Source of the DNA: Eledone cirrhosa
Taxonomy: Eukaryota
NCBI GenBank assembly: GCA_964016885.1
Contig: OZ024747.1
Span: 28,582,001 to 28,646,000, forward strand
DNA: 64,000 nucleotides
Reading direction: 5' to 3'
Positions 742 through 52,532 of the stretch are shown one piece after another (position 1 is the stretch's first letter; every line of letters starts with the position of its first letter). The notes under the pieces are model-generated. The model saw nothing but the letters and a program-made list of their open reading frames with translations. It ran no database searches and was not told where the DNA came from. The translations under genes and the position numbers were made by a program.

Positions 742-825
742 TGTCAGAAGTGGGATTCAAACCCACGCCGGAAAGACCCGACTGCGACCTCAACGCAGCG
801 CCTTAGACCGCTCGGCCATCCTGAC
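742..825 (-). tRNA. tRNA-Leu gene or pseudogene with a CAG-type body and a GAG anticodon
   Basis: Reverse complement reads GTCAGGATGGCCGAGCGGTCTAAGGCGCTGCGTT-GAG-GTCGCAGTCGGGTCTTTCCGGCGTGGGTTTGAATCCCACTTCTGACA. It folds into a cloverleaf with a long variable arm. The T-loop is TTTGAAT instead of TTCGAAT. Confidence 0.9.
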
Positions 826-2755: not shown

Positions 2756-2976
<221 letters not shown>

Positions 2977-2987
2977 TATATATATAT

Positions 2988-3305
2988 ATGTAAGTATGCA
3001 TGTATACGTACATACATATATGTATACAGACGTACAGTAGCATGCACATATATATATAAATTCAGGCTGTTCAGTTTGTTTACAAACGAACAAAGCGACG
3101 TTATAATAAGCGCCGCTAAACTGATACGTGCATGTATGTATGTGTACCTGTATGGATATGTATGTATATATGTATATATATATATGTGCATGCTACTGTA
3201 CGTCTGTATACATATATGTATGTATGTATACATGCATACTTACATTTAAGTAAGTGCCATACTAAGAGTGAGAAATGAAATTTCGTTTTCATTTTGTTTC
3301 AATTT
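2988..3305 (+). mobile_element. Diverged partial relative of the 422-bp HHR repeat with a 5' inverted duplication
   Basis: Shares the blocks tttgtttacaaac, ttataataa, atacgtgcat, tactgtacgtc.gtatacatatatgtatgta and tactaagagtg.gaaatgaaat with the array unit. 2988-3058 is the reverse complement of 3175-3245. Confidence 0.85.
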
Positions 3306-3323
3306 ATATATATATATATATAT

Positions 3324-3871
<548 letters not shown>

Positions 3872-3974
3872 TATATATATATATATACACATATATATAT
3901 ATATATACACATATATATATATATATACACATATATATATATATATACACATATATATATATATATATATACAC

Positions 3975-4183
<209 letters not shown>

Positions 4184-4196
4184 TATATATATATAT

Positions 4197-4265
<69 letters not shown>

Positions 4266-4356
4266 TATATATATATATATACACACACATATATATATAT
4301 ATATATATACACACACATATATATATATATATACACACACATATATATATATATAT

Positions 4357-4395
<39 letters not shown>

Positions 4396-4446
4396 TATAT
4401 ATATATATATATATACACACACATATATATATATATATATACACAC

Positions 4447-4555
<109 letters not shown>

Positions 4556-4628
4556 CATATATATATATATATACACATATATATATATATATATATACAC
4601 ATATATATATATATATATACACATACAC

Positions 4629-4659
<31 letters not shown>

Positions 4660-4676
4660 TATATATACACATACAC

Positions 4677-4707
<31 letters not shown>

Positions 4708-4736
4708 TATATATACACATATATATATATATATAT

Positions 4737-4783
<47 letters not shown>

Positions 4784-4790
4784 TATATAT

Positions 4791-4825
<35 letters not shown>

Positions 4826-4828
<3 letters not shown>

Positions 4829-7800
4829 CGTTCCTTTGTCAGTGTTGAACAAACGAGCAACGGTGGTTGCTAGACACTACGGCTTAATACGGGATGTTTG
4901 TTTACAAACACACCGAGCATTATAATAAATGTTCGGTGAATCCATACGTGCATATATATATGTGTGCATGTATGTATATATATATATACATACTACTGTA
5001 CGTCGGTATACATATATGTATGTACGTGTACATACTTATATTTAAGTAACAGCCGTACTAAGAGTGGGAAATGAAATATCGTTTCATTTTTTCCGTTTAT
5101 CGTTTTCGGTGCACCCGGCCGATTAACCCACTCGATATGCATATTGGGCTACTCAGCCGTTAATATGCATAAGGTAAGTATATACGTTCAACAATCTGGC
5201 AGGAAGGTATACGTTGCTGACGATAGCTAACAAGCTTGAAACTAGTACAGCGTTCCTTTGTCAGTGTTGAACAAACGAGCAACGGTGGTTGCTAGACACT
5301 ACGGCTTAATACGGGATGTTTGTTTACAAACACACCGAGCATTATAATAAATGTTCGGTGAATCCATACGTGCATATATATATGTGTGCATGTATGTATA
5401 TATATATATACATACTACTGTACGTCGGTATACATATATGTATGTACGTGTACATACTTATATTTAAGTAACAGCTGTACTAAGAGTGGGAAATGAAATA
5501 TCGTTTCATTTTTTCCGTTTATCGTTTTCGGTGCACCCGGCCGATTAACCCACTCGATATGCATATTGGGCTACTCAGCCGTTAATATGCATAAGGTAAG
5601 TATATACGTTCAACAATCTGGCAGGAAGGTATACGTTGCTGACGATAGCTAACAAGCTTGAAACTAGTACAGCGTTCCTTTGTCAGTGTTGAACAAACGA
5701 GCAACGGTGGTTGCTAGACACTACGGCTTAATACGGGATGTTTGTTTACAAACACACCGAGCATTATAATAAATGTTCGGTGAATCCATACGTGCATATA
5801 TATATGTGTGCATGTATGTATATATATATATACATACTACTGTACGTCGGTATACATATATGTATGTACGTGTACATACTTATATTTAAGTAACAGCCGT
5901 ACTAAGAGTGGGAAATGAAATATCGTTTCATTTTTTCCGTTTATCGTTTTCGGTGCACCCGGCCGATTAACCCACTCGATATGCATATTGGGCTACTCAG
6001 CCGTTAATATGCATAAGGTAAGTATATACGTTCAACAATCTGGCAGGAAGGTATACGTTGCTGACGATAGCTAACAAGCTTGAAACTAGTACAGCGTTCC
6101 TTTGTCAGTGTTGAACAAACGAGCAACGGTGGTTGCTAGACACTACGGCTTAATACGGGATGTTTGTTTACAAACACACCGAGCATTATAATAAATGTTC
6201 GGTGAATCCATACGTGCATATATATATGTGTGCATGTATGTATATATATATATACATACTACTGTACGTCGGTATACATATATGTATGTACGTGTACATA
6301 CTTATATTTAAGTAACAGCCGTACTAAGAGTGGGAAATGAAATATCGTTTCATTTTTTCCGTTTATCGTTTTCGGTGCACCCGGCCGATTAACCCACTCG
6401 ATATGCATATTGGGCTACTCAGCCGTTAATATGCATAAGGTAAGTATATACGTTCAACAATCTGGCAGGAAGGTATACGTTGCTGACGATAGCTAACAAG
6501 CTTGAAACTAGTACAGCGTTCCTTTGTCAGTGTTGAACAAACGAGCAACGGTGGTTGCTAGACACTACGGCTTAATACGGGATGTTTGTTTACAAACACA
6601 CCGAGCATTATAATAAATGTTCGGTGAATCCATACGTGCATATATATATGTGTGCATGTATGTATATATATATATACATACTACTGTACGTCGGTATACA
6701 TATATGTATGTACGTGTACATACTTATATTTAAGTAACAGCCGTACTAAGAGTGGGAAATGAAATATCGTTTCATTTTTTCCGTTTATCGTTTTCGGTGC
6801 ACCCGGCCGATTAACCCACTCGATATGCATATTGGGCTACTCAGCCGTTAATATGCATAAGGTAAGTATATACGTTCAACAATCTGGCAGGAAGGTATAC
6901 GTTGCTGACGATAGCTAACAAGCTTGAAACTAGTACAGCGTTCCTTTGTCAGTGTTGAACAAACGAGCAACGGTGGTTGCTAGACACTACGGCTTAATAC
7001 GGGATGTTTGTTTACAAACACACCGAGCATTATAATAAATGTTCGGTGAATCCATACGTGCATATATATATGTGTGCATGTATGTATATATATATATACA
7101 TACTACTGTACGTCGGTATACATATATGTATGTACGTGTACATACTTATATTTAAGTAACAGCCGTACTAAGAGTGGGAAATGAAATATCGTTTCATTTT
7201 TTCCGTTTATCGTTTTCGGTGCACCCGGCCGATTAACCCACTCGATATGCATATTGGGCTACTCAGCCGTTAATATGCATAAGGTAAGTATATACGTTCA
7301 ACAATCTGGCAGGAAGGTATACGTTGCTGACGATAGCTAACAAGCTTGAAACTAGTACAGCGTTCCTTTGTCAGTGTTGAACAAACGAGCAACGGTGGTT
7401 GCTAGACACTACGGCTTAATACGGGATGTTTGTTTACAAACACACCGAGCATTATAATAAATGTTCGGTGAATCCATACGTGCATATATATATGTGTGCA
7501 TGTATGTATATATATATATACATACTACTGTACGTCGGTATACATATATGTATGTACGTGTACATACTTATATTTAAGTAACAGCCGTACTAAGAGTGGG
7601 AAATGAAATATCGTTTCATTTTTTCCGTTTATCGTTTTCGGTGCACCCGGCCGATTAACCCACTCGATATGCATATTGGGCTACTCAGCCGTTAATATGC
7701 ATAAGGTAAGTATATACGTTCAACAATCTGGCAGGAAGGTATACGTTGCTGACGATAGCTAACAAGCTTGAAACTAGTACAGCGTTCCTTTGTCAGTGTT

Positions 7801-8417
7801 GAACAAACGAGCAACGGTGGTTGCTAGACACTACGGCTTAATACGGGATGTTTGTTTACAAACACACCGAGCATTATAATAAATGTTCGGTGAATCCATA
7901 CGTGCATATATATATGTGTGCATGTATGTATATATATATATACATACTACTGTACGTCGGTATACATATATGTATGTACGTGTACATACTTATATTTAAG
8001 TAACAGCCGTACTAAGAGTGGGAAATGAAATATCGTTTCATTTTTTCCGTTTATCGTTTTCGGTGCACCCGGCCGATTAACCCACTCGATATGCATATTG
8101 GGCTACTCAGCCGTTAATATGCATAAGGTAAGTATATACGTTCAACAATCTGGCAGGAAGGTATACGTTGCTGACGATAGCTAACAAGCTTGAAACTAGT
8201 ACAGCGTTCCTTTGTCAGTGTTGAACAAACGAGCAACGGTGGTTGCTAGACACTACGGCTTAATACGGGATGTTTGTTTACAAACACACCGAGCATTATA
8301 ATAAATGTTCGGTGAATCCATACGTGCATATATATATGTGTGCATGTATGTATATATATATATACATACTACTGTACGTCGGTATACATATATGTATGTA
8401 CGTGTACATACTTATAT
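4826..8417 (+). repeat. Tandem array of a 422-bp unit (8 full copies + 216 bp), retrozyme-like, with one HHR per junction
   Basis: tacagcgttcc recurs at 4824, 5246, 5668, 6090, 6512, 6934, 7356, 7778 and 8200. Only one difference between units was noticed (C>T at 5476). The array is embedded in (TA)n. Confidence 0.97.
5186..5272 (+). ncRNA. Type I hammerhead ribozyme with extended stem I (first of 8 copies, period 422)
   Basis: acgttg-CTGACGA(5217-5223)-tagct aaca agctt-GAAA(5238-5241)-ctag-TA^cagcgt, with cleavage predicted after 5247. Stem I extends through aagg/cctt, ctggca/tgtcag and gttcaaca/tgttgaac. Confidence 0.93.
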
Positions 8418-8453
8418 ATACACATATATATATATATACACATATATATATAT

Positions 8454-8490
<37 letters not shown>

Positions 8491-8503
8491 TATATATATA
8501 TAT

Positions 8504-10798
8504 ATATTATAATGAAATGACAGGAGGCTGGATTTGTGTAAATCCTTGAAAGGTTTAAATGTAATAATGAACAGCGGCATGGGACTGAATATATCTAACC
8601 ACCATTCGGACTGTGGCTACTCGGTGTTTTTCGCCTACCGCCAACCTGGCCCATGGCTACTTCCCTCTCAGAATATTCGGACCTCGACGAAACTCTACGG
8701 ATTATACCATAACATGTATTGTACTGCACTGTATCAACTGAATTCGCTACCCTATACTTCTGGGCATGTATAACTCCCACTGAATTCCCAGACTCGAACA
8801 CACACTGACTCCATTTCCACATCTATATGCATTATCTGACTGTAACTTGAACTATATTGTATTTCTCCTGTGTCTTGAACTATCCATTTACCCGACTCTT
8901 GTTTGTTTATTTATATCTTTATATATTTATTTGCTGTATTAATGCTTTTCCACATATTCTACCTCTATACATCCATGTACTTTTTACTTCCCTTATTCGG
9001 ACTTTTACTCGCGTGTACCCTTAGCACACGACACTGGAATGTCTCCCCCTGGGAACATTAATACTGCAACCTGAACTATATTGTACTTCTACTATGTCTT
9101 GTTTTCTCCATCTTACTCCAACACCACTCTTGTTGGTTTATTTACATATTTATATTTATATATTGATATATTTATATATTTATACCTTTGCTTTATCAAT
9201 GTGCTCTTCCACGTATTCCTCTTCTATGTATCCATGTATTTCTACTCCTCCTATTGGGACTTTTGCTCACTTGTCCCCATTAGCACACGACACTAGAATG
9301 TCTCCCCCTGAGAACAAAAATAAATATTACCCGACTATATCCCGTACTCTACATCCCACTAGGGTAAATTATAGATCTACATAATACAATTAACGTCTCT
9401 TCAAAAAAGACTCTCTTTAATTAAACCCCGCAACCCAAAACCTTATATAAGTTTTTTTTAAATGTTTGATTTTCAATTTTCTGTTTGTTCAATTCTCAAT
9501 CCTCTTACTCTTTAATTTTATAATGTTATTCTGAATTCCTTCAACTTCATCCTATAAATTTAAACAATATTTTAGAGTTCCAACTTTCTGTCGGACTGTT
9601 GGGTGGGTTTTAATGGCGGCGCACCCTGAGGCAAGGGCCTACCTTGAGTGCTTGGAAAAATAAATTTCCCCTTCTTTCGGTAAATGAAAATACTCGGAGT
9701 GGCTTAATTCGTCCTGGAGCGCGGCCGGTTTTTAACCGCCACATAGTACCTTTAAATTACAGACCAAATCAGAAATATTAGATATATCAACCTTAAAATG
9801 TTAAACTGTTTAACTTTAAATTTTCTAATTTCTTTGATATTAATTATTAATTTTTAACTTCATCCTATAAGTCTAAACAAAAACGTAACGTTTCAATCTT
9901 CTGCTCACACATTATAACACACTGACCCCCACTATATTCACCTCTGCTAAGATACGGGTCCCTGTGAAAATTTTCTCGCGCCACTCCTGGCCTGACTGTA
10001 GTCTGACATTAATATCGACCTTTCTTCCTCTTTCTTTCTATCTTCCTTCTTGTAGCCATCAACCCTTACTCTTCTACTTCTTCCTTTTCTTCCTTCTCTT
10101 CTCCCCTCTTTCTGTCTTCCTCCCGCAGACTTATCTTCCTTCTCCCTCTTTGTTCGCCCATATCTGACCGGTAGTAGTTGTTTAGATACGGGTCCCGTAG
10201 AATAAAAAAATTTCTTCGCGACAACCCTGGCCTGACTGTAATACCGTCCTTTCCTCCTCTTTCTTTCTGTCTTTCTTCTTATAGCTGACATTAACCCTGG
10301 CTTCTCCTCTTCTTCCTTCCCCCTTCTTCTCTCTCCTTCCTTTCTTTCTTTCTTTTGTCTTGTAACTTATGTTCCCATCCCTTTCTGTTTTCCTTTATCT
10401 GACCGGTAGTAGCACACTGTGAGCCTTAGCCACGTCACTCGAGGGCGACCGGCTAAGATAGAGGGTGCAAGATAGCGGTCGCCCTCGGGTCCTCGATTTT
10501 TAGCCCCATGGATTTTATCTATTACATTCACGTATTATATTTTAAATACCTGATGATATCACCGGATTCACACGAAACCCGGTCATTGAAATGATCATAG
10601 TATAATAAACCTTTCAAGGATTTACACAAATCCAGCCTCCTATCATTTCATTATAATATTTAACTCCGTAATAGCACCACCAACTACAAAAACAAAGACG
10701 GTTGAACTGCTTTACGTTGAGTACTCTCTATATTATTACATTACGATTGACCATACGGAATAGACCAGCTCTATACAGTGGTGAACCACAAACCTGAA
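8504..10798 (+). mobile_element. 5'-truncated PLE 3' region (~2.3 kb) with an inverted pLTR piece, internal duplications and an HHR
   Basis: 8504-8557 is the reverse complement of 10606-10659. Diverged direct repeats lie at ~8845-9055/9065-9315 and ~9948-10175/10183-10412. There is a GC hairpin at ~10440-10488 and an HHR at 10546-10603. Confidence 0.75.
10546..10603 (+). ncRNA. Type I hammerhead ribozyme
   Basis: atac-CTGATGA-tatcaccgg...ccggtcatt-GAAA-tgatca-TA^gtat. Stem III is the palindrome ATGATCAT. Confidence 0.85.
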
Positions 10799-25398: not shown

Positions 25399-28320
25399 TC
25401 ATCATCATCATCATCATTATCATTTTACGTCCGCTTTTCCCTGCTTGCAAGGGTGGGACGGGTCTTATTCAGCACAGCATCTCTCCACTCGTCACGGTCC
25501 CTCGTCATCTCCACCGTGAGCTTCAATGATCTGAGGTCTGTTCTCACCACCTCCGCCCATGTTTTTCGTGGTCTACCTCTACCACGTCTTCCTTCAACTG
25601 GCATTTCCTGGCACTTCTTCACTCATCGGTCATCCTCCATGCGCATCACATGTCCATACCACCTCAGTCTCCTCTCCCGTACACTACATTCTATCCCTCT
25701 CAGACACAGTTTCTCTCTCAACACATTTATGCTGGGTCGTTCACGCACATTTACACTGCACATCCAACGGAGCATGCTTGCCTCATTTCTCTCCAGCCGT
25801 CGCATATCTTCTGCGGTAGCTGCCCATGTCTCACTACCATGCAGCATCGCGCTCCTCACACAGGCATCATACAACCGGCCTTTCGTACGCAGGGAGAAAC
25901 CCTTCTTCGTCAACAGAGGAAGCAGCTCCCTAAACTTCTTCCAACCCGTCCTTATTCTAGATACTATGGCCTCGGAACACCCTCCTCCCATGCTAATCTG
26001 ATCTCCTAGGTACCGGAAGCTATCCACCACTTCTATAGCGCCCTCTCGCATTTGAAAAATGTGTCTATCAGTGCGACTTCTACTGTCTAATTTCCCTGTA
26101 CATCTACTGCATACATAGTTCTCCCTACCTGTTAGTTTGCCTGCTATCCCGCTACATCTCTTGTGTACCCAGGACCTACATTGTGTGCATTTTATAGAAT
26201 TTATGCCAGTTCCTTTTCTGCATATCGAACATGGCCATTTCCCTGACGGAATCAGGGTTTTGTCCTCTTTTCTACTCATCAACACTTTTGTCTTAGCTAG
26301 ATTTACTCTCAGTCCTCTTGCTTCCAACTGCTGTTTCCATAGCCGGAATTTATTCTCTAGCTCCTCTACTGATTCTGCCATAAGAGCCAGATCGTCAGCA
26401 TAGAGAAGTTCCCATGGACAGCCAGTCTTAAACTCCTCTGTTATGGCTTGGAGGACTATAATGAACAAGAGCGGGCTGAGGACCGAACCCTGATGTACTC
26501 CTACTTGTATCTGGAATTCCTCACTAAACTCCATTCCTACCCTGACTTTACTGAGAGTACCTCTGTACAAAGTTTGCACTGTCCTTACAAGCCATTCCTC
26601 AACACCCAGCTTCCTTAGGGACCACCAGATGACAGATCGGGGTACCCTATCAAAGGCCTTCTCTAGGTCAACAAAGGCTAAGTATAGTGGCTTATTCTTC
26701 TCTAAGAACCTCTCTTGCATTTGTCTCACCAAGAAGAGGGCATCTGTTGTACTCTTCCCAGGCACAAAACCAAACTGCATCTCATCTAGTTTGACCCTTT
26801 CTCTAATTAGTTGTGCTAAAATCCTTTCTGCCACTTTCATAACCTGATCTATCAGTTTTATACCCCTATAATTGCTCCTCTCCAAAGCATCCCCTTTACC
26901 TTTGTAGCAATTTATGAGAATACTGCTGCACCAGTCTTTGGGTATGACACCACCATATATAGCCTGATTGATTATGCGTGCAACCAGTTTAGTGCCTACG
27001 TCCCCTGATGCCTTCAGCATCTCAGCAACTATTCCCGATGGTCCGGCCGCCTTACCATTTTTCATTTCCCTAATCGCCTCTTGGACCCTATATTCGTCAA
27101 TCTCAATAGCTGGTCCCTCTGTCGGATCTACCAAGGGTAATTTCTCTCTCTCCCATTCGTTCTCCACATTCATCAGTCTCTCATAATGACATTTCCAGGC
27201 CTCCTTTTTCTGGTCATTCGTGACACTAAGTACACCGGCATCATCCCGGACACATTTATCACCAACAACATCCTGATTTGCATTGACACACTGCCTTGCA
27301 ATGTGGAACACCGCACGCCTCTGATCTTCCCGTCGCAGAACATTGGCAAACCTCCTACTCTCTGCCTCCCTGCGTGCTAAGTACACCTGACGTCTAGCTT
27401 CTCTCTTAGTGGCTGTATATTCTTCCCTACTCCCACCCTTATTCCAAGCCTTCCATGCTAGTCTTTTGTCTCTAATAGCCTTATCTACACTGCTGTTCCA
27501 CCACCAGGTCACTCTCTGTCTGGTTGGAGCTCTGCTCCAGCCACAGGTTTCATCAGTAGCCTTCAGCAAGTTGTCACGTAAGAACTTCCAGTTATTATCT
27601 ATGTCATACGTCTCTAAATCGTCTTCTTTTTCGTCATATACATCTTGAAGGGCTTTCCTAAATTTGAATTTTAGTGAAAGGTCTTTTAGCTTCCAGACCT
27701 TTCTTCTCCACACCTTCCTATATGTCTCATTCCATCTCTTGCTTACTGAGATATCACTAACAACTAACCTATGCTGTGGGGTACATTCTTCCCCAGGGTA
27801 TGCCTTGGTATTAGACACTATCTGCCTGTCCCGCTGCCTAACTAGCAGGAAGTCAATCTGGCTTATGTGCTCACCAGATTTGTAGGTTATTAGGTGATTG
27901 GCAGGTTTCTGGAAGTTTGTGTTGCAAATAGTCAATGTACTTGCATCACAAAATTCAAGAAGTCTCACTCCTTCTTCATTTCTTGTACCCCAGTGTAACC
28001 ATCCTGGAGCTGTCCAACATGACCATTGAAGTCTCCTGCTAGCATAACGATGTCTCCGTCCTCTGTCATTGTGGTTGTTTGCAAAAGTTGCTCATAAAAG
28101 CAGTCTTTCTCATCTTTGCCTAGGCCTGCTTGGGGAGCATAGACCGAGATGATTGTCAGTAGTCTCCTACCTACAACTAATCTAAGCTTAATTATTCGAT
28201 TACTAACTCGAACTACCTCTATTGTCTTATTGATCCATTTCTCAGCCAGGAAAATGCCTACTCCCCCAAACCCATCATCCTTACCTACCCAGAATAGCTT
28301 ATAGCTAAGACGCTTGCCTT
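25399..28320 (-). mobile_element. Young 5'-truncated RTE-clade LINE (partial APE + RT + PHD-like Cys cluster), (TGA)n tail
   Basis: 781-aa ORF 25623-27968 with QFGF, FVDLEKAFD, GVHQGSVLSP and LLYADD. A single in-frame TGA at 25623 is followed by in-frame GRGRPRKTW to 25425. Confidence 0.95.
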
Positions 28321-28328
28321 ATATATAT

Positions 28329-29206
28329 TTCGTTTCTGAATTTGTTTAGCAAGATTCTTTATCTGAAAACGTGTGTTGAAACCGATATTGTTATGCTTTG
28401 GGAGGGTCATGTTGCCAATAAGAAACACACGCACCAGTTGCTTTCACTCCAATTTATTATAAATTAAATTTATAAATTTAAGAATTTATAAATTTCTGGT
28501 TGGTTCCACAACCAGACGATTGTTCATATATTGTCAAAGTTCTTTCGTCACACATTCTGTGACCTCTTCAGTGACTGGAGATTCTTTTCTTTGTTTTTGT
28601 GCCTCTCCTTTGTTCTGTCCTACGCCATCTTGTTTTTGTGTGTGTTGTGTGCTTCGTTTGTGCATGTGTTACATCAGGGTGCCTGTGTGTGTTTATATTT
28701 GTTTATTTACATGTTACTGGTTGGTTGTTTGTTCTATGTGTGTGTGTGCTTTCATTTTGTCCTTAATTGTAAGTTGCGATGTTGCTATTCCATTCATGTT
28801 TTCTATTTAATTTGGGTTGGAGTTCATTTATGTTTATTGCCTCTGTGATTTGTCTAAACATTGCGTCTTTTCTGTATGTAGATTCTATTTTTATTTCTAT
28901 GTTCTCTAATTTACCCTTATGTTCTATTTTAGCATGTTGGTGGAGTACAGGTGATTGTTTACTATCTTGAAGCTCTCGCCAGTGTTCATTTATCCGTTCT
29001 CCTATACTACGAGCTGTCTCACCTATGTACACTATATTCTTATCTCTACATTGTCCTTCAGTACATCTTATGCTATATATTACATTTCTAGTTTTACAAT
29101 TAATATGGGAGCTTAGTTTACAGATTATACATTTCTTATCTATACAGGGAGGTCTTTGAAAAGGGTATGTATTGCTAATAAGTGTTTTTATGGAGTCTCT
29201 CGTAGT
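28329..29206 (-). mobile_element. 5'-truncated Penelope-like element: GIY-YIG C-terminus + 3' UTR/pLTR with HHR (28533-28575)
   Basis: The GIY-YIG ORF ends at 28763. About 190 nt downstream is gtca-CTGAAGA-ggtcacagaatgtgtgac-GAAA-gaac-TT^tgac. Confidence 0.9.
28763..29206 (-). pseudogene. PLE GIY-YIG endonuclease domain with an upstream Cys-rich linker (truncated ORF)
   Basis: CIDKKCIIC...CKTRNVIYSIRC...C...YIGETARSIGERINEH...HQH...H...RQITEAINI...LNRKHEW. The N-terminal part of ORF 28763-29473 is merely antisense RTE. Confidence 0.9.
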
Positions 29207-31294
29207 GAGACTATTAAATGAGGAGAATAAATGGGAAAAAGATAGTCTGCCCCAAATCGATCCAATAGAAGGACCAGTAGTGCAAGTTAAAGGTAGTATA
29301 ATAAGTAAAGCAATCAAAGATATGAAGACAGGCAAGGCAGCTGGGCCTTCGGAGATAGTTGCTGAGATGTTGAAGGCATCTGGTATGGTGGGACACACTA
29401 CAGTCACCCGTATAGTTAACCAAGTAATACAGAATGGGGTCATACCGAAAGACTGGCATAGCAGTATCATCATTAACTGCTACAAAAGTAAAGGGGATGC
29501 TCTAGATAGGGAAACTATAGAGGCATTAAGTTAGTTGACCAGGTCATGAAGATCACAGAAAGAGTTATAGCGCAACTAATCAGAGAGCGAATTGATCTAG
29601 ATGAAATGCAGTTTGGGTTTGTGTCAGGTAAAAGTACCACAGACGCTCTTTTCCTTGTACGACAAGTACAAGAGAAGTACCTAGCTAAAAGTAAACCCCT
29701 CTACTTAGCTTTTGCAGACCTGGAGAAAGCTTTTGACAGAGTCCCCCGCTCCATTATCTGGTGGGCTCTTAGAAAACTAGGTGTAGATGAATGGCTTGTG
29801 AGAGCTATACAAGCTATGTATAATGAAACAGTCAGTAAGGTTAGAATTAACAATGAATATTGTGAAGAATTTAGTGTAAAAGTTGGTGTTCATCAAGGCT
29901 TTGTCCTTAGCCCCCTCTTATTTATTATTGCCCTTCAGGCTATAACAGAGGAGTTCAAAACCGGCTACCCATGGGAACTCCTATACGCAGATGATCTAAC
30001 GCTCATAGCTGAATCAATGGCTGAACGAACTAGAGAGGAAATTCGAATCAAAAGGCCTTAAAGTTAACTTGTCTAAGACTAAAGTTCTAGTTTGTAGAAA
30101 GGAAAATAGGGCACAGGTGCCCTCAGGGAAATGGCCATGCTCAGTGTGTAGGAAAGGAGTAGGCAGAAATTCCATTTTATGTTCCAAATGCAAAGTATGG
30201 GTACATAAAAGATGTAGTGGGATCACAGGTAAACTATCTAAGAATATAGACTTTATATGTGGCCAATGCTCAGGTGCAATAAGTAGCAAGTGTCCAAAGG
30301 ATACTAGCTCCTTCCATTGCCCAGATGGTTCTCTAGAAATAGTAGACACTTTCCGTTACCTGGGTGACGAAATCAGCAGTGGTGGAGGGTGTTCTGAAAG
30401 TACAATAGCAGAAGTCAGAACAGGATGGAAAAAGTTCAGAGAGCTTATACCACTATTGGCTGCTAAAGGTTTCTCTCTACAAATGAAAGGCAGATTGTAT
30501 GATGCCTGTATACGAACAGCAATGCTACATGGCAGTGAGACATGGGCATTACGTGCAGAGGACCTGCGTAGACTGGAAAGGAACGAAGCATGCATGCTCC
30601 GTTGGATGTGTAGTAGTAATATACTTGAACGACAAAGCATAAATGAACTAAGTGAGAAATTAGGAATAAGAGGGATCAGATGCTGTTTACTTGAGAGAAG
30701 ACTACATTGGTATGGTCACGTGATGCGCATGAAAGATGACAGCTGCATAAAAAGTGCAGGGTGATCAAAATTGATGGTAGTTACGGAGTGGGTAGACCCA
30801 TAAAATCCTGGGATAATCTGATAAATTCCGACCTCACACACTTACATCTCTCTAAGACAATGTCACTGGACCGAGATCTTTGGCGCTACGCAGTAATACA
30901 GAAGACCCGCCTTGCCTATGTACAAAGCGAAACCTAGTCAGTAGGCTCCTCCTAACCAAATATACACCCCAATCCACAACCCCTACCCTATCCTCCCACT
31001 CCCACCAACAGCACGAGAAAACGAGATTGAGATCGTGTAGGTGTCACGACAAAAAAACACACACAGTCCACGCTGTAATGTGGCCGTGTAGGTAACATGG
31101 TAAAAAGTTCCCAGTTCCACACTGTAAATGTGGTTGGTGTTAGGAAGGGCATCAGCCATAGAAAACCTGCCAGATAGTCCTATATGAGCGAGACACGGTC
31201 ACCCGACCAGCCTTGACTTCAAGTGGGACAACTCCCGTCTAACCCATGCTAGCGTGGAAAATGGATGTCAAACGAAGATGATGATGATGATGAT
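29207..31294 (+). mobile_element. 5'-truncated, frameshifted RTE LINE with a long 3' UTR and (TGA)n tail
   Basis: ORFs 29172-29534, 29546-30061 (LLYADD) and 30069-30764 lie in successive frames. Confidence 0.92.
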
Positions 31295-34296: not shown

Positions 34297-37033
34297 TGTT
34301 TCTTTATTAGCCACAGGGGCACAAAAGAAGGGGACAAATACAAAGGGGGAAGTTTACATACAATAAAAACGTGTAAAATGTTATCCCAAATGCAATTTAA
34401 AAAATTAGTCGATTTTCCCCCAATAGGGGGAGACAATTCATATGGGTAACACATACCCCCGAAAAAATGTGCAACCCTCATCTCCAGGAGTACGAAGAGT
34501 TTGTACTCCCTTCCTCTCCTCCTCCTTTTCCTCAACCTACAGGCTGATATAGAGAGAAGGCCCATTCACTCGGGCCATTCTCGCCACTTTCACCCACCTT
34601 TCATAAAACTTGCTGGGGTACAGCACCTCTCTCTCCATCCTGATTCTTCTTCCAAAGTGGTATTTGAAAAAAAGAATCAGTTGTTGGCCGGAGAGAAAGG
34701 TGTCTGACCTCAGCCCTTTCAACCTTGTCCACCATACAACCTCTTTCGCCATAGCTATCACACAAAGGAAAACCGCCTCTCCTTCGTTCTTGAAGGAGGG
34801 TGGCGGTTTGATCATGACAATTGACTCGGTGGTCAACCGGATTGGTCCCAACCGCGACAATAGCCGTTCTACATAGCTCCACAGGTCAGTGACGCCCGGG
34901 CAGTGTATGAATGCGTGCGCGACGGTTTCTTCATTACGCATGCACCTCGGACAGATCTTTTTTGCAGGGTCCCTGCCCGAGCGCCCATGTCTGTAGAGCT
35001 TGTCTTGAACTGGTGGAGCTCCTCGGTAACACTGCCAGGCCAGGGACTTTTGGAAGTTGTCCATGGGTCCCGGGCGGAAGGTCCTACCGAACCGACTGGC
35101 CAGTTCATCTTCCTCTATGCCTAGAGTTTCACCGAGCGCGTCGTCGCACTTGCTGCGGATCAACCCTCTATAGAATGACGAAGTGGAGTTTCCACTGATC
35201 GCCGGGTCCGCCTGCCAGAGGGCTGTGAGCGCCTGAGCACATTCAATATGCCAGTCGCCCATTTTCCTCGGTCTTTGCTTGACCCAGGACTGCAGCTCGG
35301 TCAGCGAGACGAGTCGTGGGAAGGCTCACCTCACGAACGGGGCTCACACCGGTTGTCCGGTGAGGAATACATAGAGATGCCGCAGCCTGAGCGCGTGTTT
35401 GCGCATCGTCAACCACGGCATCCCCAGCCCTCCGTTAGAAGGGTGTTGGCAGCAGATGGATCTTCTCACCAAAGGAGCCCGCCTCTTCCAAGGAAGAGCG
35501 CGCGCTCCATTTTGGCGAGCGTTTTGGCTGGACAATGCACGACGGTCAAGCGGTAGTAGATGGCAGACGCTATAAAAGTGTTCGCCACCTCCGCTCGACC
35601 TTTCAAGGATAGTTTGCACTCGGCCCACTTCGGGTGAGTGCAAACACCTTGGCCGTCACTTCATTCCAATTCTTCTCCACCTGGAGGTCCGGACCAAACC
35701 AGACCCCGAGCAACTTTACCGGTCCTTCCGTCCAGCGTCTGATGACGCCATTGGAAGGCATCAGTTTGCCTCTCCACGATCTGAGTTGCAAACCGATGGA
35801 CTTGTCCCGGTTCAGCTTCGCTCCTGTGAAACTTTCGTATTCCTTCAGTAAGGTGAGGCGCTCGATTTGTGAGGCGCTCGATACCATTACTGTCACGTCA
35901 TCGGCGTAGGCCGACGCCGCTTTCCGCAGTCCCGGTTCCAGAGGGATGCCCTGCAATAGCTCCAACTTCCGCAGTAGTGGCTCGAGAGTCAGTACATACA
36001 GAAGAGAGGAGAGAGGGCATCCCTGTCGAATGGATCGCATAATATGGAACGGCTCCGAGAGGTAGCCGTTCACCTTGACCCTTGAGCAGATGTTGCTGTT
36101 GTGCATTGCAGCAATCCAGCCCCTGAACACGGGTCCGAAGCCTGCCGCCTCGAGCACCGCATCCAGGTAACGATGGTCAACCCTATCGAAAGCCTTAGAC
36201 TGATCCAAGTTGATCAGGGCTCCACCGAAGCCGGGTTTACACCCTACCCTCTCTATGATGTATCGCATGAGGTGGAGGTTGTCGTGTATGGACCTAGTCG
36301 GGATTGTGCATGTCTGCGCTTCTCCCACCAGGTTCTCGACGACAAGCGCCAGCCTTGGCCAAAATCTGTAACTCTGTTTAACAGAGTTATGGGCCCCTTA
36401 TTCTCGTCCTTCCTGACTAGTGTGACTACGCCCCCGGTTACAGAACTAGGAATTCTCCCGTTCTGTTGCCAGTTGCAGTAGACCGCTTCCAGGAGACCGG
36501 AGAATAAGTCCGGCATTGCTACGGAAAATTCGTAGGGTAGACCGTCGAGACCTGGAGATTTGCGTTTGCCGCATTGGCTCAGTGCGTCCCCTATCTCAGC
36601 GCCTGAAATCGGCTTTTCGCAGAACTTTGCCTCGCTGTCCGAGAGTCGCGGTAGGCCGTCGAGGTATGGACCGAAATCCATAGCCCCTCCCAGCGCGCCG
36701 CGCCGCCCGAACAGTTGAGCAAAGTGCCGCTGAAAGGCCGCACACATCTGCTTCGGCTCACGTATCACGCGTCCGTTTTGGTCCTTCAAAGACCGAATCG
36801 TGGACTTGTTGCCACTTTTTGCCTCCGTCACTCGGGCCCAGCTAACAGCTTTGGCTCCCTCGTTTCCCAGAGCACGTATTTTGCTTGACAACGCAGCCCT
36901 CGTGCTTTGCGTCGAAGAACTGGTCCAAGGCCGTTCTCGTTGCTAGCACGCTGGCTATGTTGCCACTTCTACTTTATCTACAAGTTCCTACTCGGTTCTA
37001 TTTCTATCTAACGCTAATTCTTTACTAAAAACT
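34297..37033 (-). mobile_element. 5'-truncated L1/Tx1-clade LINE (frameshifted ORF2) with a 13-bp TSD
   Basis: Motifs KSPGLDGLPYEF, LDQSKAFDRVDH, RQGCPLS, AYADD and CPRC...ETVAHAFIHC. AATAAA lies near the 3' end. AACGCCATAGATA occurs at 34284-34296 and 37034-37046. Confidence 0.92.
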
Positions 37034-44380: not shown

Positions 44381-45537
44381 GCAAGGCGGGTCTTCTGTAT
44401 TACTGCGTAGCGCCAAAGATCTCGGTCCAGTGACATTGTCTTGGAGAGGTGTGTCTGAGGTCGGAATTTATCAAGTCGTCCCAGGTTTTTCTGGGTCTGC
44501 CTACTCCGTGGCTACCGTCTATTTTGATCGCCCTGCACTTTTTTATACAGCTGTCGTCTTTCATGCGCATCACGTGACCATACCAACGTAGTCTTCTCTC
44601 AAGTAAACAGCATCTGATCCCTCTTATTCCTAATTTCTCACTTAGTTCATTTATGCTTTGCCATTCACGTATATTACTATTACACATCCAACAGAGCATG
44701 CAAGCTTCGTTCCTCTCCAGTCTGTGTAGTTCCTCTGCACACAATGCCCAAGTCTCATTGCCATGTAACTTTGCTGTTCGTATGCAGGCATCATACAGCC
44801 TGCCTTTCATTTTTAGAGAGAAACCTTTAGCAGCCAATAGTGGTATAAGCTCTCTGAACTTTTTCCATCCTGTTCTGACTCTAGCTACTGTACTTTCAGA
44901 ACACCCTCCACCACTGCTGATTTTGTCACCCAGGTAACGGAAGGTGTCCACTATTTCTATAGAACCATCTGTGCAATGGAATGGGCTAGTATTCTGTGAG
45001 CACTTGCTGCTACTTATTGCACCTGAGCACCGGCCACATATAAAATCTATATTCATAGTTAGCTTACCTGTGATCCCACTACATCTTTTATGCACCCATA
45101 CTTTGCATTTGGGACATAAAATGGAGTTTCTGCCTACTCCTTTCCTACACACTGAGCATGGCCATTTCCCAGATGGGACCAGTGCTCTATTTTCCTTCCT
45201 ACATACTAGAACTTTAGTCTTTGTTAGATTAATTTTAAGGCCTTTTGATTCTAGGCCATGCTTCCATGTTTGGAATTTCTTCTCTAGTTCAGCCATTGAT
45301 TCAGCTATAAGCGTTAGATCATCAGCGTATAGGAGTTCCCATGGGCAGCCGGTCTTGAACTCCTGTTATAGCCTGAAAGGCAATAATAAATAGGAGGGGG
45401 CTAAGGACGGAGCCCTGATGAACACCAACTTTTACGCTAAACTCTTCACTATATTCGTTGTTAATTCTAACCTTGCTGACTGTTTCTTTATACATGGCTT
45501 GTATAGCTCTCACAAGCCATTCATCAACACCTAGTTT
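44381..45537 (-). mobile_element. RTE LINE fragment (RT C-terminus), same subfamily as 29207-31294
   Basis: ORF 44400-45296 is nearly identical to 30069-30764, and GVHQGSVLSP is present in 45322-45513. Confidence 0.92.
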
Positions 45538-52091: not shown

Positions 52092-52532
52092 ATGGCTGAA
52101 GCCAAAAAAGATGTCAGATCTACAGAGTCAAAAGGGAAAGAAAAACAGAAGAAACTCCGTGAATTGGTGGATCAGGAGGAATATATACTGAGAAAGCGGC
52201 TTCCACGGACATTTCCAAAGCGACCTAATGATGTATACATTAGCAAAAAGACTAATTTCAAAGCCCAAATGATTCGTTGTCAGAAATTTCTGGATAATGG
52301 CAACAAAGTGTATATCCATGCTCTTGGAGCTGCTATCAACAGGGCAGTGAACCTAGCATTACAACTACAGGTAAATGGCTTTGGATCTGTGGAAATCTCC
52401 ACTAATACTTCTACTGTTAACCTCACAGATGATTTGGAACCAACTAATGATAACTTAGACTATAAGACATTATCAAGAATTAACTCAGCCATCCACATCA
52501 AGGTTTTTCGGCCGCCTAAGTTAAAAGAATGA
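52092..52532 (+). CDS. POP7: Ribonuclease P/MRP protein subunit p20 (Alba-like), 146 aa, single coding exon
   Basis: RKRLP...PNDVYISKKTNFKAQMIRCQKFLD...IHALGAAINRAVNLALQL...TSTVNLTDDLEP...RINSAIHIKV. Acceptor ttctttttcAG at 52061-52062. AATAAA lies just after the stop. Confidence 0.95.
   Translation: MAEAKKDVRSTESKGKEKQKKLRELVDQEEYILRKRLPRTFPKRPNDVYISKKTNFKAQMIRCQKFLDNGNKVYIHALGAAINRAVNLALQLQVNGFGSVEISTNTSTVNLTDDLEPTNDNLDYKTLSRINSAIHIKVFRPPKLKE

Follow-up and report, generated by a model that had tools for sequence, protein, structure and literature searches.

A dimer-type hammerhead motif at each junction of an octopod non-LTR retrozyme array with a Penelope-like insertion footprint

The window, a stretch of 64,000 nucleotides of the Eledone cirrhosa genome (contig OZ024747.1, positions 28,582,001 to 28,646,000), contains a non-coding 422-bp unit repeated in tandem (4826..8417, + strand). 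The array consists of 8 full units, with one substitution among the 8, and a further 216 bp. It sits between two (TA)n target tracts (3672..4825 on the left and 8413..8511 on the right), and a type I hammerhead motif spans all of its junctions (8/8, identical copies), the first copy being located at 5186..5272 (+). The array starts at the predicted cleavage site of this motif. Genomic insertions of the family have two fixed 3' ends, and the array stops at the shorter one. The 59 nt that separate these ends (unit positions 217-275, 5464..5522, +) are referred to below as the tail. An older, diverged fragment of the same retrozyme family (74% identity), which ends at unit position 275, lies at 2928..3307 (+). 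Metazoan non-LTR retrozymes are recognised in the available text of PMC7229834 by tandem non-coding units of 150-450 bp with a GC content under 50%, by one type I hammerhead per unit and by dispersal in multiple copies, and each of these traits was found here. The 422-nt unit is highly self-paired, and its circle is predicted to fold at about -146 kcal/mol. In two sequencing runs presumed to be of RNA, coverage was seen on the TA-rich part of the unit only, which is neutral as to expression.

Several other features of the window were recorded. A tRNA-like sequence at 742-825 (-), with an Rfam score of 53 bits, has the anticodon loop GAG, an unusual leucine anticodon in eukaryotes, and is probably a pseudogene. 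An uninterrupted open reading frame for the RNase P/MRP subunit Rpp20/POP7 is present at 52095-52532 (+), with 88% identity to Rpp20 of Octopus bimaculoides and 82% to that of Argonauta. Broken LINE-like reverse transcriptase frames, as judged by eye from translations, occupy 25623-28091, 29160-30764, 44400-45365 (-) and 34537-36942 (-), and other repeat families contribute two more hammerhead-like motifs, at 10550 (+) and 48511 (-). Another short repeat, perhaps a further non-autonomous element, was seen at about 1580-1760 of the window and at several other loci, and the junction clusters show it repeatedly ending at TA tracts.

The preliminary description of this DNA had ascribed to the motif an interrupted stem I of about 24 bp and a stem III reduced to A-CUAG-U, and both were found in place. 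Stem I has 24 pairs (22 Watson-Crick and 2 G-U) in four helices: 5186-5193/5265-5272 (8 bp), 5196-5201/5259-5264 (6 bp), 5204-5207/5255-5258 (4 bp) and 5211-5216/5248-5253 (6 bp). Its 5' strand (5186..5216) is interrupted by the bulges AU (5194-5195) and GG (5202-5203) and by the UAU (5208-5210) of a UAU/U internal loop that follows the proximal 6 bp, and its 3' strand (5248..5272) would be the 5' end of the cleaved monomer. The core segment (5217..5240) comprises CUGACGA (5217-5223), a U.U mismatch (5224/5237), the 4-bp stem II AGCU/AGCU with the loop AACA (5229-5232), and GAA. It is followed by a further A, CUAG and the cleavage triplet GUA, that is, by the palindrome ACUAGU and A17 (5241..5247), and the predicted cut falls between 5247 and 5248. 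In a monomer, stem III is a single A-U pair around CUAG; in a dimer, the self-complementary ACUAGU would give 6 bp, with a computed duplex energy of -4.8 kcal/mol.

All nucleotides conserved in hammerheads according to the available text of PMC3088659 are present (C3, U4, G5, A6, N7, G8, A9, G12, A13, A14, A15.1, U16.1 and H17). The core is flanked by helices I and II, helix I is the open stem, as in type I motifs, and a helix III of 1-2 bp with a self-complementary loop is of the dimer type. The triplet GUA is a natural hammerhead variant (PMC1636495). The standard pair at positions 10.1-11.1 is replaced by the U.U mismatch; a mismatch at this place served as a rejection filter in PMC3088659, but the same U.U is tolerated in the cleaving axolotl motif HHR_Amex2 (PMC7229834), so this pair appears to be usual but not essential. 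In an unconstrained fold, part of the core pairs with the palindrome, which makes an inactive register. Neither this register nor the mismatch had featured in the preliminary description.

The 87-mer of the motif, whose borders were chosen post hoc, folds at -27.9 kcal/mol (z of -3.0, with 10/1000 shuffles as stable). A loose pattern of the core has 12 other matches in the 64-kb window. The z value was only -1.1 for a 121-nt window around the motif, and Rfam gave no hammerhead match to it, either at the gathering score or at E values up to 10, as if it were a chance hairpin in satellite DNA. We give that explanation hardly any credence, since all core nucleotides are correctly spaced with both stems, the motif recurs in over 23,000 copies, one proximal pair of stem I changes on both sides, and the insertions carry the footprint of a retroelement, as described below.

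In a pattern search of the genome, the exact 31-nt core gave 2,710 matches, and a degenerate core, in which two positions were Y and two were N, gave at least 23,483, compared with 0 for the reversed control in either case. The retrozyme subfamilies range down to about 75-80% identity. In two older arrays, L054 and L078, which belong to subfamilies about 80% identical overall, the core had 0/31 majority differences from the window unit, as compared with 18/94 and 10/85 for the body in L054 and 12/94 and 12/85 in L078, a contrast that is biased in that loci were selected for exact matches to the core. Variation was concentrated at the free position 7 and in loop II among the matches listed, and the central TA of the palindrome, when left free, was kept in 99 of the first 100 matches listed. 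Loops 1 and 2 lie at the canonical distance and vary in sequence: loop II is AACA or AAUA among subfamilies, and loop 1 is UAU here and UAA in a large young subfamily, its third base being A and not U.

Pairing in stem I was counted in 24 hand-picked rows of 114 distinct variants. The proximal helix was 96.5% paired in these rows, and one of its pairs flipped between U-G, G-U and A-U (10, 9 and 4 of 24 rows). The distal 18 pairs were 88% paired, and no recurrent two-sided change was found among them in the 24 rows (one single cell). As two of the distal pairs are mostly open in other copies, the stem of 24 bp is specific to the subfamily of the window. Nevertheless, duplex energies of -21 to -25 kcal/mol were obtained for stem I across 7 natural copies. 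Apart from this family, 36 dispersed hammerhead-like motifs that share ACUAGU (control 0) were noted at loci L091-L120, and all but two of them are unrelated in stem II to the 422-nt family.

Most metazoan type I motifs have a helix III of 1-2 bp with a palindromic loop, and cleave in multimers but not in circles (PMC4209133). The axolotl motif HHR_Amex1 has a one-pair stem III with a palindromic tetraloop; its monomer was 6% cleaved in 1 h, and its dimer was cleaved much better (PMC7229834). Axolotl motifs with either a one-pair stem III or the U.U mismatch showed weak monomer and strong dimer cleavage in the same work, and 8/9 Xenopus retrozyme dimers were inactive in vitro (bioRxiv 10.64898/2026.07.22.740005). 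In a bare two-junction RNA of our element, the double hammerhead was favoured over two active monomers by 16 kcal/mol (15.7-16.4 kcal/mol in 7/7 natural copy pairs). This advantage was lost once natural flanks were added: the double form was then favoured over two active monomers by only 4.5-6.2 kcal/mol (4/4 windows) and, at +9 to +11 kcal/mol over the free ensemble, was no cheaper than one active monomer, which stood at about +7.8 kcal/mol. In a circle, one active monomer stood at +8.5 kcal/mol over the free ensemble. Nearest-neighbour energies omit tertiary contacts and Mg2+ and treat a lone pair badly, and thus neither prove nor refute dimer dependence. The preliminary description had proposed that multimers cut themselves while monomeric circles stay stable. 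Dimer-type cleavage between tandem copies is indeed likely by analogy with HHR_Amex1, but the energies with flanks do not establish it, and the model is not new, as the literature already gives it as the norm for type I hammerheads of animals (PMC4209133, PMC7229834).

The lower cost of the flanked active monomer would fit a motif that cleaves adequately on its own, aided by a loop I/loop II contact or by a protein, the palindrome being inherited and either proteins or the inactive register shielding the circles. The canonical geometry, with a 6-bp helix I and a 4-bp helix II (PMC4209133), the cleavage of coral and mussel motifs as monomers (PMC7229834) and the protein assistance of a PLE hammerhead (PMC11167929) point in the same direction. 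However, the invertebrate motifs active as monomers have a stabler helix III, the one-pair type reached only the 6% mentioned above, and the main subfamilies seen retain the palindrome. We regard adequate cleavage by the monomer as unlikely, and prefer a motif that cuts slowly by itself and better in a pair.

Cleavage may be slowed by the long stem I. During transcript growth, the local stem I would be the first to form (predicted p about 0.9). The strand swap faced a nested-path barrier of 19.6 kcal/mol, compared with 10.1 kcal/mol when the distal stem was held open; both barriers are upper bounds that ignore pseudoknotted branch migration. Another role had been assigned to this stem in the preliminary description, that of holding the monomer ends together for ligation, and this idea is poorly supported. 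The distal 14 pairs are predicted to be formed in the linear monomer (p of 0.63-1.0), but the proximal six only with p of 0.40-0.61, and self-ligation of axolotl and mussel monomers reached 3% and 1%, in contrast to over 80% and about 30% with RtcB (PMC7229834). Closure of circles by a host ligase is more likely than self-ligation, and the long stem I is an ordinary helix that closes a self-paired monomer, not a special ligation device.

Genomic insertions of the family stop at one of two unit positions, 216 or 275, with (TA)n beyond; 4,340 and 3,935 such junctions, respectively, were found in the genome, compared with 9 and 0 in the control. Among 45 ribozyme-centred loci of contig C1, a strict pattern detected 18 and 28 of these ends, respectively, together with 13 outward-facing pairs, each of which had one end of each kind (13/13 pairs, from 11/45 loci, three of the pairs being in one duplicated locus). 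In a looser BLAST map, a few ambiguous cases of ends appeared in old copies. An inverted arm and a one-sided tail are the signature of Penelope-like elements (PLEs; PMC8557442), and their tail lies between two start sites of reverse transcription (PMC11167929). The retrozyme insertions show the same footprint: two fixed 3' ends that delimit a tail, an inverted 5'-truncated arm, and a microsatellite target.

We considered that insertions begin at the cleavage site, which is true for the array at 4826..8417, but no sharp peak was seen there genome-wide and the 5' ends were scattered. By hand count, 8/40 distinct 5' junctions from the first 100 of 365 rows were at the cut site, as compared with 11 at unit positions 410-412 and 7 at 405-407. 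As junctions at the cut site are about as common as those of each of the two other clusters, the start of the array at this site may be due to chance and TA microhomology.

As many as 35 intact junctions are retained in arrays of the family. At L060-L061, about 35 units that each carry 12-25 private differences form an old, in-place array of 15 kb. Two of 14 arms (L209 and L078) have a two-unit ABAB period, with lag-1 differences of 15 and 10 and lag-2 differences of 2 and 2.5. We rejected these as a sign of dimeric RNA circles, since the marker of one array was found at just one other locus and local DNA duplication is simpler. Some arrays thus likely also grow at the DNA level, the ABAB arrays by local duplication of a dimer.

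Taken further, the long runs of intact junctions, the ABAB arrays and the lack of a sharp 5' peak at the cut site could mean that the ribozyme is nearly silent in vivo, with its junctions trapped as local hairpins by the long stem I and with arrays made from uncut multimers and DNA-level duplication. The early local stem I, the high barrier to the strand swap, and the finding that cleavage is not needed for PLE insertion in vitro (PMC11167929) would agree with that. We nevertheless consider a silent ribozyme very improbable. Between subfamilies the body has diverged and the core has not, albeit in a biased sample, and rolling-circle copying of a circle also yields intact junctions and scattered 5' ends.

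The window also contains a fragment of a Neptune-type PLE with a GIY-YIG end (28763..29479, -), which represents a candidate helper family. The hammerhead-like motif of this PLE was seen in two copies, at 28571 and 2166 (-). Genome-wide, the Neptune-type family has about 30,700 end motifs, a 60-nt tail and the (TA)n target; the retrozyme has a tail of 59 nt and the same target. One end of each kind was again found in all pairs of the Neptune-type family (17/17 pairs in 50 loci, one pair being doubtful). No sequence homology between the retrozyme and the local Neptune-type family was found among the BLAST matches listed, and none of 8 long loci had an intact Neptune-type open reading frame, the longest open frame being 552 aa. 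As a control for tail length, a second PLE family gave no end within about 1.2 kb in 16 loci. At two loci (L141 and L150), retrozyme ends and Neptune-type ends were nested in one TA tract.

A link between retrozymes and PLEs was proposed in PMC7229834 and PMC7761336, and was argued in bioRxiv 10.64898/2026.07.22.740005, in the part of its text that was available, from co-occurrence and pLTR homology only; that part contains neither 'tail' nor 'target site'. As a tentative proposal, the retrozyme might be copied by the abundant Neptune-type PLE, with which it has no detectable shared sequence, through recognition of RNA shape, with reverse transcription starting at two sites about 60 nt apart and always one for each end of the broken DNA. 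In this proposal, the long stem I would act as a kinetic lock, slowing the strand exchange needed for double-hammerhead cleavage and thereby preserving the templates.

Taken together, these results make it probable that the motif is a type I hammerhead at each junction of an octopod non-LTR retrozyme array, which likely cuts slowly singly and better as a strand-swapped pair, and whose copies are likely pasted by a PLE. Two neighbouring copies would likely exchange strands of stem I and pair with each other through ACUAGU, and so cut better. If the element follows axolotl and newt retrozymes, cleavage of read-through transcripts would give 422-nt monomers, these would be closed into circles by RtcB or another host ligase, and the single weak motif would leave the circles mostly intact. 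A PLE enzyme would then likely paste copies into (TA)n, with reverse transcription starting at two sites 59 nt apart, one per DNA end.

In the literature searched, which left most subscription papers outside, we found no publication on an octopus hammerhead ribozyme, on octopod retrozymes or on a retrozyme tail footprint. The ribozyme design itself is already published, and the present motif adds a cephalopod example. The strict rule of one end of each kind, together with the matching tail length, provides direct insertion-site evidence for the mobilisation of retrozymes by PLEs, and this young element of 422 nt, present in thousands of copies, would be a convenient substrate for in vitro PLE assays.

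Among known systems, the axolotl retrozymes Rtz_331 (HHR_Amex1) and Rtz_353 (HHR_Amex2) and the newt satellite (PMC7229834) are likewise tandem non-coding repeats with one type I hammerhead per unit. The octopod motif resembles HHR_Amex1 in its one-pair helix III with a palindromic tetraloop and HHR_Amex2 in the U.U at the base of helix II, but it joins both weak features and has the triplet GUA, a 422-nt unit and a mollusc host. With the canonical metazoan type I hammerhead (PMC4209133) it shares a helix I of 6 bp, a helix II of 4 bp and a helix III of 1-2 bp with a palindromic loop of 2-4 nt, and differs from it in being unpaired at 10.1-11.1 and unscored by the Rfam models. Mussel and coral retrozymes (PMC7229834) are also tandem repeats of invertebrates with a highly self-paired predicted fold; their motifs, however, cleave as monomers, and their units are 220-390 nt long, in contrast to 422 nt in the octopod. 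Finally, with Neptune-type PLEs and their non-autonomous derivatives (PMC8557442; PMC11167929; bioRxiv 10.64898/2026.07.22.740005) the octopod retrozyme has in common partial tandems, an inverted 5'-truncated arm, a one-sided tail and a microsatellite target, whereas it lacks an open reading frame and its tail is 59 nt long, as compared with the usual 30-40 nt.
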